Source: an uncultured Erwinia sp.
GTDB lineage: Bacteria; Pseudomonadota; Gammaproteobacteria; Enterobacterales; Enterobacteriaceae
Assembly: GCA_945290265.1 (NCBI GenBank)
Contig: CALYQW010000008.1
Location: 3,494-67,493 of the forward strand
Length of the DNA stretch: 64,000 nt
Direction of reading: 5' to 3'
Made by a program: the position numbers and the translations under genes. Shown piece by piece: positions 3,610 to 36,793 of the stretch (within the stretch, counting starts at the first letter, position 1; every line of letters begins with the position of its first letter). Below the pieces are notes generated by a model. It ran no database searches. It saw only the letters and a program-made list of their open reading frames with translations, and was not told the origin of the DNA.

Positions 3610-3846
3610 GATGCTCTCCTTACCAATTTTTCACACTGCAATCATAAGCATTATTAATCATGCGGTTATGCTTATTTTAAATTCTGCTACACCACGTCTG
3701 AACATGCCTGGGAGTTAAATATAGCCTGCGCTGATGTGATTTTTTTATAAAAAATTAGCTGTGCGTGATAAGTGTCACATATTCTAACAACGCAGCCGGT
3801 ATAGTCTATCAATAAGTCACATAATTTCACAATGTTGAGGTATCAC

Positions 3847-4761
3847 ATGTCAGTTCAGAAAAACAATGTCTGCATTATTGGGCTGGGATCGATGGGAATG
3901 GGCGCTGCGCTGTCATGTATTAAAGCCGGTCTCAATACCTGGGGTGTCGATATTAACCCACAGTCCTGCCAGTCTTTGATCCAGGCGGGGGCGAAAGAAG
4001 CGGGCAACAGCGCGATCCCCTTTGCTGCTGAACTTGATGCTGTGTTATTGCTGGTGGTGAATGCGGACCAGGTAAAAAATATTCTGTTTGGCGACAATGC
4101 GCTGGCACCACACCTAAAGCCAGGCACCATTGTGATGGTTTCTTCAACGATTTCCGCCGCTGATGCCAGTGAAATTGCCACGAATCTCCGGCAATACGAT
4201 CTGCTGATGTTGGATGCGCCGGTCTCCGGAGGTGCTGCTAAAGCGGCAACCGGAGACATGACCGTGATGGCATCCGGCAGCGCTGCGGCTTTTGCTGGCT
4301 TACAACGGCTTTTAGAGGCGATTGCCGGCAAAGTGTATCGTATTGGTGATGATATTGGCCTCGGTTCAACTGTCAAAATCATCCATCAGCTGCTGGCTGG
4401 CGTGCATATCGCGGTAGGTGCCGAAGCCATGGCATTAGCGGCGCGTGCCGGTATTCCTCTCGACACCATGTATGACGTGGTGACCCATGCGGCGGGTAAC
4501 TCCTGGATGTTTGAAAACCGCATGCAGCATGTGCTTGACGGCGACTACTCGCCAAAATCGGCGGTCGATATTTTTGTTAAAGATCTCGGCCTGGTGAATG
4601 ACACCGCCCGTTCCCTGAAATTTCCCCTGCCTCTCGCGACCACTGCCCTTAATATGTTCACCTCCGCCAGCAATGCCGGTTACGGGCGTGAAGATGACAG
4701 TGCGGTGATCAAGATTTTTAGCGGGATAACATTGCCGGCAAACCGTGCTGAGGGGAAATAA
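3847..4761 (+). CDS. ltnD: L-threonate dehydrogenase (3-hydroxyisobutyrate dehydrogenase family, YgbJ/LtnD)
   Basis: From ORF 3832..4761. Long identical runs to remembered E. coli YgbJ: GLGSMGMGAA, LDAPVSGGAAKAA.G.MTVMASGS, GSTVKIIHQLLAGVHIA.GAEAMALAARAGIPLD, DSAVIKIFSGITLP. ATG 3847 chosen because a GAGG Shine-Dalgarno lies 6 nt upstream. Confidence 0.9.
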   Translation: MSVQKNNVCIIGLGSMGMGAALSCIKAGLNTWGVDINPQSCQSLIQAGAKEAGNSAIPFAAELDAVLLLVVNADQVKNILFGDNALAPHLKPGTIVMVSSTISAADASEIATNLRQYDLLMLDAPVSGGAAKAATGDMTVMASGSAAAFAGLQRLLEAIAGKVYRIGDDIGLGSTVKIIHQLLAGVHIAVGAEAMALAARAGIPLDTMYDVVTHAAGNSWMFENRMQHVLDGDYSPKSAVDIFVKDLGLVNDTARSLKFPLPLATTALNMFTSASNAGYGREDDSAVIKIFSGITLPANRAEGK

Positions 4762-33799: not shown

Positions 33800-33900
33800 G
33801 TTTGACGTAGCGGCGGAATTGCCGCAGGCTACGCTGATATCATCATTACAGCACCGTGAAGGCTGGTGATAACCGGTCCTCTATTGATAAGCGAGAATTT

Positions 33901-35346
33901 ATGAGTCTTAATCTGGTAAGTGAGCAGTTACTGACTGCCAACAATCTCACTCACAGCGATCTGTTTTCTGTCCTCAGCCAGCTTTCTGAACGTCGGCTTG
34001 ATTATGCCGATCTCTATTTCCAGTCCAGCTACCATGAATCCTGGGTGCTGGAAGATCGTATTATCAAAGACGGTTCATACAATATTGACCAGGGCGTTGG
34101 CGTGCGCGCCATCAGCGGTGAGAAAACCGGCTTTGCCTATGCTGACCAGCTGACGCTGGATGCGTTGCATCAGAGCGCAACGGCCGCACGCAGTATCGTG
34201 CGTGAGCAGGGTAATGGTCAGTCGCAGGTGCTGAATGCGCTGCAGCATCGGGCGCTGTATCCACAGCAGGATCCGCTGCACAGCCTGACGCGCGAAGAAA
34301 AGATTGCCCTGTTGCACCGCGTGGACAGTGCTGCCCGGGCGGCAGATAAGCGGGTGCAGGAAGTCTCCGTCAGTCTGACCGGCGTTTATGAGCAGGTGCT
34401 GGTAGCGGCCACTGATGGCACCCTGGCCGCGGATATTCGTCCGCTGGTGCGTCTGTCGGTCAGCGTCCAGGTGGAAGAAGACGGCAAGCGCGAGCGCGGC
34501 AGCAGCGGCGGCGGCGGGCGCTTTGGCTATGAATTCTTCCTGGCTAATGAGTCCGGTGAAGTGCGGGCCGATGCCTGGGCGCGTGAAGCGGTGCGCATGG
34601 CGCTGGTGAATCTCAATGCGGTGGCCGCGCCGGCGGGATCGATCCCGGTGGTGCTGGGTGCCGGCTGGCCGGGCGTATTGCTGCATGAAGCGGTGGGGCA
34701 CGGTCTGGAAGGGGATTTTAACCGCCGTGGCACCTCGGTGTTCAGTGGTCAGATTGGCCAGCTGGTGGCGTCAGAACTGTGCACCGTGGTGGACGATGGC
34801 ACCCTGGAAGGGCTGCGCGGCTCGCTGGCGATGGATGACGAAGGCGTACCGGGTCAGTACAACGTGCTGATCGAAAATGGCGTGCTGAAGGGCTATATGC
34901 AGGACAAACTCAACGCCCGCCTGATGGGGGTTGCGCCAACCGGCAATGGTCGCCGTGAATCCTACGCGCATCTGCCGATGCCACGTATGACCAACACTTA
35001 TATGCTGGCCGGTCAGTCCACGCCGGAAGAGATTATTGCCAGCGTCGACTACGGCCTGTATGCCCCTAACTTTGGCGGCGGTCAGGTGGATATTACTTCC
35101 GGTAAATTTGTCTTCTCGACCTCGGAAGCGTATCTGATCGAAAACGGTAAAGTGACCAAACCGGTGAAGGGGGCAACGCTGATTGGCTCCGGCATTGAAG
35201 CGATGCAGCAAATTTCGATGGTCGGCAACGATCTGGCGCTGGACAAAGGCGTTGGCGTTTGTGGCAAAGAAGGCCAGAGCCTGCCGGTCGGCGTAGGTCA
35301 GCCCACGCTGAAACTGGATAAACTCACGGTGGGTGGGACTGCCTGA
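33901..35346 (+). CDS. tldD: Metalloprotease TldD
   Basis: From ORF 33856..35346 (the track start is a GTG). ATG 33901 ([11 protein letters not shown]) gives 481 aa, as in E. coli. Contains the [16 protein letters not shown] zinc motif. Confidence 0.97.
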
Positions 35347-35391
35347 TCGTGCACTCCCCGTCAGGCAGGACATGCGCCAGATAGCAGAAAC

Positions 35392-35426
35392 AAAAAGCCC
35401 GACTGGTGAGGTCGGGCTTTTTGTTT
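35392..35426. terminator. Bidirectional rho-independent terminator (tldD on +, predicted sRNA on -)
   Basis: AAAAAGCCCGAC-tggtgag-GTCGGGCTTTTTGTTT. There is an A-run upstream and a T-run downstream, so it is competent on both strands. Confidence 0.8.
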
Positions 35427-35447
35427 CCGGCATTCATTGAGTGGTGT

Positions 35448-35479
35448 CTCTGACCGGAGTGTGGTTCTCTACATCCAAC
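35448..35479 (+). repeat. 32-nt repeat copy 1 (inside the sRNA gene)
   Basis: ctctgaccggagtgtggttctctacatccaac. Matches copy 2 at 29 of 32 positions, including a perfect 17-nt run ggttctctacatccaac. Confidence 0.9.
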
Positions 35480-35485
35480 TGCTCA

Positions 35486-35514
35486 ATTTTAAAACAGATA
35501 CACAGCTATGTCAA
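35486..35514 (-). promoter_or_regulatory. Sigma70 promoter of the antisense sRNA
   Basis: Minus strand reads TTGACA (35514..35509), then a 17-nt spacer, then TAAAT-type -10 TAAAAT (35491..35486). Confidence 0.65.
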
Positions 35515-35627
35515 AAGCCCGAAAGTTCGTTTATGGTGCTGTGGTTGGCACTGAAAGAATTTCGCTCCAGCGCTCCTCTCATAAATATATAAGCCCTGGC
35601 TAAATACAGGTGGTGCTGTGTTTAGTA

Positions 35628-35659
35628 CTCTGGCTGGAGTGAGGTTCTCTACATCCAAC
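35628..35659 (+). repeat. 32-nt repeat copy 2 (predicted sRNA target in the toxin mRNA leader)
   Basis: ctctggctggagtgaggttctctacatccaac, ending 71 nt upstream of the toxin ATG. As RNA:RNA pairing, two of the three differences become G-U pairs, leaving a single A-A mismatch. Confidence 0.9.
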
Positions 35660-35730
35660 GAGAAGAGACCATAGTGACAGGCAGCCCATGAGTAAACTGT
35701 GGGATCTCACTCCCTGTAAAGGGAAAGCGG

Positions 35731-35814
35731 ATGATTGATAAAACAATCATTGTTCTCGGTGCGTTAATTTCGTTCCTTGAACTGATTCGTTATCTTCTCC
35801 AGTTGATGGGCTGA
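35731..35814 (+). CDS. dinQ: DinQ-like 27-aa single-TM type I toxin peptide
   Basis: ATG ATT GAT AAA ACA ... GGC TGA translates to MIDKTIIVLGALISFLELIRYLLQLMG. I recall the E. coli DinQ peptide as MIDKAIIVLGALIALLELIRFLLQLLN, which is about 21/27 identical. It is below the ORF-track size cutoff and is followed by a terminator. Confidence 0.65.
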   Translation: MIDKTIIVLGALISFLELIRYLLQLMG

Positions 35815-35830
35815 TAACGGAAACGTAGCT

Positions 35831-35860
35831 AAGGCCGAAGACTAACCCGCTTCGGCCTTT
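35831..35860. terminator. Hairpin between the dinQ-like gene and the convergent aaeR
   Basis: AAGGCCGAAG (35831..35840) pairs with CTTCGGCCTT (35850..35859). It lies 17 nt after the toxin stop and 16 nt after the aaeR stop. Confidence 0.6.
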
Positions 35861-35875
35861 AACCGCCCGCAGTAC

Positions 35876-36793
35876 TTATTCCGCACGAAATTCCTGATAA
35901 ATTTGCGCCGCTTTCTTAAAATAATCAGTGAGATAATTAATGCACACCTGCACCTTGAGCGGCAGCTTATCTTTTTGCGTGTAGACCGCGTACACCGGGC
36001 GGGGCACGGACTGATAGTGAGCAAACAGGATCTCCACCTCGCCGGCTTTAATCTCCTCAAGGATCCACATCAGCGGGACATAAGCGATCCCCGCGCCGGT
36101 TTTCAGCCAGCGGATTAACGTCTGTGAATCATTGGTGGCAAAACGTCCCTGCGGCGACAGCCGGATGGAAATCCCCTCCGGTGAGGTCAGTTCTACGTCG
36201 TTATCCGGACGCACGCTGTATTCCAGCCAGGAGAAATTACCGATATCCGAAGGTTTTTCCGGCGTACCGTGTTGAACAAGGTAACTTTTAGCGGCGCAGA
36301 CTACCATCGGCATGGTGCCAATACGGCGTGAAAACAGGCTGGAATCCTGCAGGGCACCAATGCGCAGCACCAAATCCAGGCCATCAGCAATCAGGTCGGG
36401 TGCCGGGATGCCGGTCACCAGATTCACCGTCAGTCCCGGATACTCTTTCAGCATCTCGGCAGTCATACTGGCTAGCAGGTTCTGCGACATGGTGGAGGAG
36501 CTGCCAATGCGCAGGGTGCCAATCGGGGTATTATTGAACGCCCACAGTTGCTCATGCACCTGCTGAGCCTCTGACATCATGCGGCGGCAGCCCTGAAAGT
36601 AAATTTTACCGGCTTCGGTCAGGCCAATGCTGCGGGTACTGCGGTTCAGTAGCTTCACCTGCAGGCTGTCTTCCAGCCGGGCGATAATCTGGCTGACGGC
36701 AGAGACGCTGATTTGCAGCTGCTGGGCGGCGGTGGTGAAGGAACCTAACTCCACCACTTTGGTAAACACCGACATACCCTTTAAACGTTCCAT
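35876..36793 (-). CDS. aaeR: LysR-family activator AaeR
   Basis: 305 aa. Contains MERLKGMSVFTKVVELGSFTTAAQQLQISVSAVSQ. It is divergent from aaeXAB. Confidence 0.93.
   Translation of the reverse strand: MERLKGMSVFTKVVELGSFTTAAQQLQISVSAVSQIIARLEDSLQVKLLNRSTRSIGLTEAGKIYFQGCRRMMSEAQQVHEQLWAFNNTPIGTLRIGSSSTMSQNLLASMTAEMLKEYPGLTVNLVTGIPAPDLIADGLDLVLRIGALQDSSLFSRRIGTMPMVVCAAKSYLVQHGTPEKPSDIGNFSWLEYSVRPDNDVELTSPEGISIRLSPQGRFATNDSQTLIRWLKTGAGIAYVPLMWILEEIKAGEVEILFAHYQSVPRPVYAVYTQKDKLPLKVQVCINYLTDYFKKAAQIYQEFRAE

Follow-up and report, generated by a model that had tools for sequence, protein, structure and literature searches.

The window analysed here, 64,000 nucleotides from an uncultured Erwinia sp. 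(contig CALYQW010000008.1, positions 3,494 to 67,493), very probably carries a complete type I toxin-antitoxin module of the DinQ/AgrB family that has been inserted between tldD and aaeR, two convergent genes. The module runs for about 480 bp, from the terminator of a small antitoxin RNA (sRNA) through the terminator of the toxin gene, and it lies in a spacer that measures 529 bp (35347-35875) from the stop codon of one gene to the stop codon of the other. A dinQ/agrB-like locus at this place had been proposed earlier from the letters of the window alone; we refer to that proposal as the original prediction.

Toxin gene and predicted antitoxin RNA

The toxin is encoded by an open reading frame (ORF) of 84 nt (35731..35814, forward strand), which gives a DinQ-type peptide of 27 aa, MIDKTIIVLGALISFLELIRYLLQLMG, and has no longer in-frame start upstream. 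Against the NCBIfam model NF041472 toxin_DinQ ('damage-inducible type I toxin DinQ') the peptide obtains 53.3 bits (E = 2.4e-14, cut-off 30). It is identical to K-12 DinQ at 21 out of 27 positions, which confirms the resemblance to E. coli DinQ noticed in the original prediction, and at 25 out of 27 to WP_000565612.1, the DinQ of an E. coli plasmid. The LELIR motif is common to all peptides of the family, and 18 of the 27 residues of the window peptide are hydrophobic; judged by its sequence, the toxin appears to be a hydrophobic inner-membrane peptide of the DinQ type. K-12 DinQ is toxic and depolarises the membrane on overexpression, effects that are relieved by the sRNA (Weel-Sneve 2013, PMC3567139). 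A toxin of the DqlB type was considered and rejected, as NF041473 gives the peptide only 14.9 bits with a cut-off of 35. Pfam contains no model for the DinQ peptide.

The predicted antitoxin is an AgrB-like sRNA gene of about 89-90 nt on the reverse strand (35390..35479), identified by its Rfam match, its promoter and its hairpin. The Rfam model AgrB (RF02891) matches 35390-35478 over model positions 1-84 out of 84 with 49.1 bits (gathering score 40), and this is the only gathering-level Rfam match in the window. The predicted sRNA folds with -32.3 kcal/mol (z = -3.9). Its promoter, TTGACA and TAAAAT separated by a 17-nt spacer (35514..35486, reverse strand), which had been described as near-perfect, agrees with the sigma-70 consensus in 11 of 12 bases. 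No other site of the region does better in the promoter scan; it coincides with the aligned position of the K-12 agr promoter and looks strong and constitutive. Transcription is predicted to start at 35479/35480, 7 nt past the -10.

The sRNA would end on a perfect 17-bp hairpin with A and T runs at its flanks (35387..35427, both strands), found as an inverted repeat with 100% complementarity. The original prediction had an RNA of about 90 nt starting at a repeat and ending on this hairpin, and both ends agree with the Rfam match; the hairpin, however, was assigned to tldD, which does not hold. The same hairpin is kept in the plasmid dinQ and dqlB modules, where the agr gene ends on it, and therefore the putative terminator arrived with the module and is not tldD's own. 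Most likely it also ends tldD. The terminator scanner reported neither of the two terminators of the module, and the hairpins were instead revealed by the inverted-repeat search and the folds. We think that the scanner missed the sRNA terminator because the stem extension consumes the U run, and the toxin terminator because it has only three U's, as in K-12.

Two other antitoxin identities, Zor/Orz and ShoB/OhsC, were rejected. OrzO-P obtains 32.3 bits (gathering score 60), for the terminator half only, and ohsC 26.1 bits (gathering score 50). These sub-threshold matches fall in the terminator half of the sRNA, 35392-35454 on the reverse strand. They agree with the reported resemblance of the zor leader to the dinQ leader (PMC11264685) and hint that these trans-encoded type I antitoxins share an ancestor.

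The link between the two genes is a direct repeat of 32 nt, identical at 29 of 32 positions as the original prediction had indicated. The first copy (35448..35479, reverse strand) is the 5' recognition region of the sRNA, and the second (35628..35659, forward strand) is its target site in the 5' untranslated region (UTR) of the toxin mRNA. By our own estimate, a repeat of this length would occur by chance in a region of 600 bp with a probability of about 1e-9. Between the 5' end of the sRNA and the toxin leader 31 of 32 positions pair, 29 of them as Watson-Crick and two as G-U pairs, leaving the single A-A mismatch that had been foreseen; the duplex has an energy of -60.3 kcal/mol (duplexfold). 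A second direct repeat, of 19 nt and 84% identity, joins the -10/+1 region of the toxin gene (35534-35552) with the 3' half of a stem-loop in the leader, SL2 (35611-35629). Together, the two repeats suggest that a single segment was duplicated to give both the agr gene and the toxin leader.

The predicted leader RNA switch

A toxin promoter can be placed at 35508..35537 (forward strand), with a -35 ATGTCA (35508-13), an 18-nt spacer and a -10 TATGGT (35532-37), at a position homologous to the K-12 -10 TATGAT and +1. The -35 hexamers of the two divergent promoters nearly coincide, TTGACA of the sRNA at 35514..35509 on the reverse strand and ATGTCA of the putative toxin promoter at 35508-35513 on the forward strand, and the two may therefore compete for RNA polymerase. 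The sequence ATGTCAA at the toxin -35 is also present in the dqlB plasmid module. The toxin mRNA is predicted to be about 320 nt long (35544..35866, forward strand), both of its ends being placed by alignment to the 331-nt K-12 RNA (+1..+331). Its terminator hairpin, AAGGCCGAAG...CUUCGGCCUU followed by UUAAC (35832..35861, forward strand), is convergent with the end of aaeR, is homologous to the K-12 dinQ terminator and is seen in the folds.

We transferred the coordinates of the K-12 dinQ RNA to the window by alignment, and all four published switch elements map one to one, all on the forward strand. The K-12 +1 corresponds to 35544, 7 nt past TATGGT, and the +44 processing site to 35587. Element 1, AUUUCGCUCCAGC (35559..35571, from the K-12 mapping and the fold), is the partner of element 2 in the full-length RNA, and element 2 (35633-35645) lies inside the sRNA target. 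Element 3, AUCUCACUCCC (35704-35714), can pair either with element 2, leaving the Shine-Dalgarno (SD) sequence open, or with element 4, which closes it. Element 4 with the SD sequence AAGGGA is at 35718-35724, the SD-closing hairpin spans 35711-35724, and the start codon is at 35731. The leader further contains the stem-loops SL2 (35599..35626) and SL4 (35664..35707), the latter with the family-invariant TGACAGGCA...GAGTAA in its loop; both are supported by folds and covariation.

In E. coli the primary dinQ RNA is inert, as element 1 pairs with element 2 while element 3 closes a hairpin over the SD. Once 44 nt have been lost, element 2 can pair with element 3 and the SD opens; binding of AgrB to the element 2 region closes the SD hairpin again and triggers cleavage by RNase III (PMC3567139, PMC5066626). 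By analogy, the primary mRNA of the window module would be inert, with element 2 occupied by element 1, so that element 3 can fold into the hairpin over the SD. Removal of the first 40-45 nt or so would free element 2 to pair with element 3 (GGAGUGAG with CUCACUCC), so that the ribosome binding site would open and the toxin be made. The first 32 nt of the sRNA would then pair with the element 2 region, sending element 3 back to the SD and blocking translation, and the sRNA-mRNA duplex would presumably be cut by RNase III.

The predicted folds follow this scheme. In the 1:2 duplex 13 of 13 positions pair, with one A-U pair where K-12 has G-C. The minimum free energy (MFE) fold of the full-length mRNA (-115.6 kcal/mol, z = -5.7) combines a long 5' stem with the SD hairpin, and the MFE fold of the RNA starting at 35587 contains the 2:3 duplex with the SD unpaired. 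When pairing of 35628-35659 is forbidden, as a mimic of bound sRNA, the SD hairpin returns. The mean probability of the SD being unpaired is 0.19 for the full-length RNA, 0.44 for the trimmed RNA and 0.19 for the trimmed RNA with the target blocked. In silico, the MFE folds reproduce the three published dinQ states.

The original prediction had also described a helix between the sRNA target and a segment just before the start codon as a typical type I refolding arrangement. The helix is real, and CUCACUCC was placed correctly at 35706-35713, but GGAGUGAG is at 35636-35643 and not at 35637-35644. It is also more than a generic refolding feature. In the model of Kristiansen 2016 the ribosome binding site is opened by the duplex 2:3 (PMC5066626), and since the GGAGUGAG/CUCACUCC helix matches both this model and the folds, it would be the activating duplex 2:3, which the sRNA breaks.

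The leader also contains an upstream ORF of 16 codons (ATG AGT AAA ... TGA, MSKLWDLTPCKGKADD; 35688-35738, forward strand), which reaches from the SL4 loop to the toxin start codon and overlaps it out of frame. The K-12 homologue, ATGAGTAAG, is in frame with dinQ and gives a long ORF, which reportedly is not the one that is translated (PMC3567139).

Covariation across the family was examined for both the sRNA-target pairing and the leader. For 19 distinct loci, an sRNA pairs with its own target at 29-32 out of 32 positions (mean 30.8), but with the targets of other loci at 19-30 (mean 25.7). In the variable core of 16 nt the averages are 15.4 for cognate and 10.4 for non-cognate pairs. The complementarity is therefore maintained by co-variation, and the window pair, with 31 out of 32, behaves like the rest.

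The leaders of 23 family sequences were aligned with MAFFT. In SL2, 91.7% of the cells are paired and 8 of the 11 pairs have changed on both sides; in the core stem of SL4, 91.3% are paired, again with covariation. Both stem-loops score above all 500 shuffles and all slid controls. Counted by MAFFT column, register shifts in the alignment reduce the paired share of the 2:3 and 3:4 helices to 66-71%, and each sequence was therefore folded separately as duplex or hairpin. In this way the 2:3 duplex is found in all 23 leaders, with a mean of -18.9 kcal/mol vs -10.3 for shuffled sequences, and so is the SD hairpin (23/23). Elements 2 and 3 change jointly across the family, as in the pairs GGAGUGAG/CUCACUCC, GGAGGAAG/UUUCCUCC and GGAGGGAG/CUCCCUCC. 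A chance ORF or a repeat associated with a terminator is ruled out by this covariation together with the matches to curated models.

State of the toxin arm

Several observations weigh against a complete and working module. The putative toxin promoter is weak, with 8 of 12 matches, and stays below the threshold of the promoter scan. The predicted shift in SD accessibility (0.19 vs 0.44) is moderate, and the AgrB score of the window is the lowest among the gathering-level members of the family, the others obtaining 56-77 bits. No RNA run holding the window sequence was found, and both RNAs, the processing and the toxicity are assigned by homology. The remaining points come from X6, a sequencing run of an organism about 98% identical that has the same tldD-module-aaeR arrangement. 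In X6, T35537C changes the last base of the toxin -10 (TATGGT to TATGGC), T35693C changes the family-invariant SL4 loop (GAGTAA to GAGCAA), and T35798G replaces leucine 23 of the peptide by arginine (L23R). All three may be a sign that selection on the toxin arm has weakened in that strain.

From these data it could be argued that the toxin arm has fallen silent or is in decay, with the sRNA being produced but hardly any transcription of the toxin mRNA; the locus would then be a remnant or an orphan sRNA gene. The promoter missed by the scan, the lack of a LexA-controlled strong promoter such as that of Escherichia and the changes in X6 all fit this explanation. However, the ORF, the SD, the four switch elements, both terminators and the 31/32 pairing are all intact in the window. 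The module in X6 has also diverged no more than the neighbouring aaeR, with 11 differences in 480 bp against 9 in 425 bp, and type I toxin genes are normally low in expression. We regard a silent toxin arm as unlikely, if worth keeping in mind.

Other contigs of X6 share the hairpin of the sRNA terminator (35392-35422 and 35609-35639 of the window were matched). In one of them the terminator-like and target-like segments are spaced by 245 nt vs 186. The altered spacing in these extra contigs suggests that the X6 organism has at least one paralogous dinQ/dql-like module elsewhere.

Relatives of the module and its insertion site

The original prediction proposed alignment with E. coli dinQ and agr as a check, and the locus does align end to end with the K-12 dinQ-agr, plasmid dinQ and plasmid dqlB modules. 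It was also correct that the E. coli family lies elsewhere with two agr copies: in K-12 the arrangement is dinQ-agrA-agrB between gor and arsR, whereas the window has a single agr gene at tldD-aaeR. This gene takes the promoter-proximal place of agrA but has the near-perfect complementarity of AgrB. In other respects the module resembles K-12 dinQ-agr closely. The peptide has the same length of 27 aa and keeps the charged residues D3, K4, E17 and R20, the AgrB-family sRNA is divergent from the toxin mRNA without overlapping it, and the pairing of about 31-32 nt between sRNA and leader is located far upstream of the SD. The four-element switch, SL2, SL4 and the terminators are shared, and the mRNA is of similar length. 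The DNA identity to K-12 dinQ is about 74% for leader and ORF and about 62% for the leader. Unlike K-12 dinQ, which starts with GTG, the window ORF starts with ATG, and its promoter region is 15 nt shorter.

A further difference is that the window lacks a LexA operator. The Escherichia loci carry the LexA box CTGTATGATTATCCAG, which in K-12 overlaps the -10, and Citrobacter youngae and C. pasteurii have one resembling it. In the window the box is replaced by GTTTATGGTGCTGTGG, and a targeted test found no CTG-N10-CAG motif in the toxin promoter region. This was the useful test, as a LexA search of the whole window with 2 mismatches returned mostly noise. Without a LexA operator SOS induction is not expected, and the module is expected, from its promoter region, to be SOS-independent.

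The plasmid dinQ/agrB modules, for example those of Yersinia pestis Java 9 pJARS35 (IncX7) and the E. coli AR_0369 plasmid (WP_000565612.1), have a single agr gene and the same architecture, and they also lack the LexA box. Their peptides are 24-25/27 identical to that of the window, including the C-terminal YLLQLMG. For the ORF half, the best DNA matches are all on plasmids: pJARS35 of Y. pestis (IncX7) reaches 80%, and the dinQ of E. coli and Salmonella plasmids 79%. The window copy differs in being chromosomal and in having a locus-specific variable core in its sRNA-target pair. As its peptide is closest to plasmid-borne DinQ, horizontal acquisition is suggested.

The module layout and the AgrB-family antitoxin are also shared with DqlB/agrB of pOXA-48 (IncL) and pOXA-484 (IncX3), where the antitoxin has about 35 nt complementary to the toxin 5' UTR (PMC12365149, PMC12317039). 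These modules with a single agrB were validated in 2025 as toxic, rescued by agrB and stabilising (PMC12365149, PMC12317039). Over agr and leader, the other half of the module, the DNA aligns to the dqlB plasmids at about 70%, while the pOXA toxin is a different peptide of 31 aa, MINLLIIVLRAV..., and that of the window is of the DinQ type. The relatedness of the window module thus appears mosaic at the sequence level, with an ORF half like plasmid dinQ and an agr/leader half that can be aligned to dqlB.

The two genes on either side of the module, tldD (ORF 33856-35346, forward strand) and aaeR (35876-36793, reverse strand), encode proteins with 89% (TldD) and 75% (AaeR) identity to those of K-12, values consistent with a member of the Enterobacteriaceae other than Escherichia. 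The K-12 aaeR-tldD spacer is 133 bp long, is unrelated in sequence to that of the window and contains no module, and in no E. coli genome searched was at least 80% of the module found in one place. As a comparison set for the site we used 65 metagenome loci encoding an AaeR of 73-89% identity. By BLAST and the family pattern (with Rfam on nine of them), the module is absent from all 65 of these aaeR-tldD loci, and the insertion therefore looks lineage-specific; it is probably recent. Where both gene ends could be placed, the spacers of these loci measure either 44-134 bp, as in most relatives, or about 840-955 bp (L142, L143, L144, L146-L148, L154, L156, L157, L160, L163, L169, L171, L174), and because of these two sizes the tldD-aaeR spacer can be regarded as a variable insertion site. 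The spacer of L142 (L142:3413-4314) contains an ORF for an unrelated membrane protein of 204 aa (3647-4261, forward strand).

Exact matches to the locus come solely from a small number of metagenome assemblies (ENA, Logan) of insect gut, food and honey. A scan of species genomes with a 16-base family pattern was too unspecific, returning at least 120 stretches that were mostly chance matches in unrelated phyla. Among the matches listed, about 30 true family loci were recovered and none adjoined tldD or aaeR. In the literature searched we found no mention of a dinQ-like locus at tldD-aaeR. The original prediction called the locus unannotated, and this is true of the gene calls, as the spacer has no called gene on the metagenome contigs carrying the locus. 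It is not true of the family, which was defined in 2016 on chromosomes and plasmids of Enterobacteriaceae, and RefSeq labels the homologues dinQ or dqlB.

A bolder form of this history would be that a plasmid-type, SOS-independent module was captured recently and precisely between the convergent core genes, that its terminators now end tldD and aaeR, and that it is wired to its neighbours through tldD read-through that titrates the antitoxin, or acts as an anti-addiction or region-stabilising element. A read-through RNA of tldD would carry the perfect complement of the sRNA 5' end (35448-35479, forward strand) and could titrate the antitoxin in this way. If so, release of the toxin would be coupled to tldD transcription or to the efficiency of the terminator. 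No plasmid or mobile-element genes are located beside the chromosomal copy, which sits between two core genes. Taken as a whole, we consider this scenario a long shot.

Even less probable is that the copy exists for anti-addiction, i.e. that its sRNA neutralises incoming plasmid dinQ/dql toxin mRNAs and protects against post-segregational killing, although such a role is compatible, as a biological function, with a complete DinQ/AgrB module. Its closest relatives are the plasmid modules named above, and plasmid DqlB/agrB modules work as addiction systems (PMC12365149, PMC12317039). On the other hand, with the foreign targets that were sampled the window sRNA reaches no more than 21-27 paired positions out of 32, and K-12 AgrA, at 25 out of 31, has no control over the active dinQ mRNA (PMC3567139). 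Finally, the idea of a damage-response gene truly orthologous to E. coli dinQ, induced by SOS and repressed by LexA, that has simply moved to a new site has next to nothing to recommend it beyond the NCBIfam equivalog name and the 21/27 identity, given the replaced LexA box, a peptide and ORF half nearer to plasmid dinQ, which also lacks the box, the different site and the single agr gene.

The favoured explanation remains a complete DinQ/AgrB module inserted between tldD and aaeR. Enterobacterales are already known to carry this family on chromosomes and plasmids, its RNA switch has been published, curated models exist for DinQ, DqlB and AgrB, and the window module adds no new principle. New are the place of insertion and the fact that a chromosomal copy shows plasmid-type features, namely only one agr gene, a peptide like that of the plasmids and the lack of a LexA box. 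The site itself is variable, being short in most relatives, whereas others have an unrelated membrane-protein gene in it, and the example illustrates that ordinary gene callers still miss small type I toxins and their sRNAs. As a natural variant without a LexA operator or a second agr gene, the module could show what chromosomal DinQ does outside the SOS response, and whether captured plasmid-type modules become domesticated.

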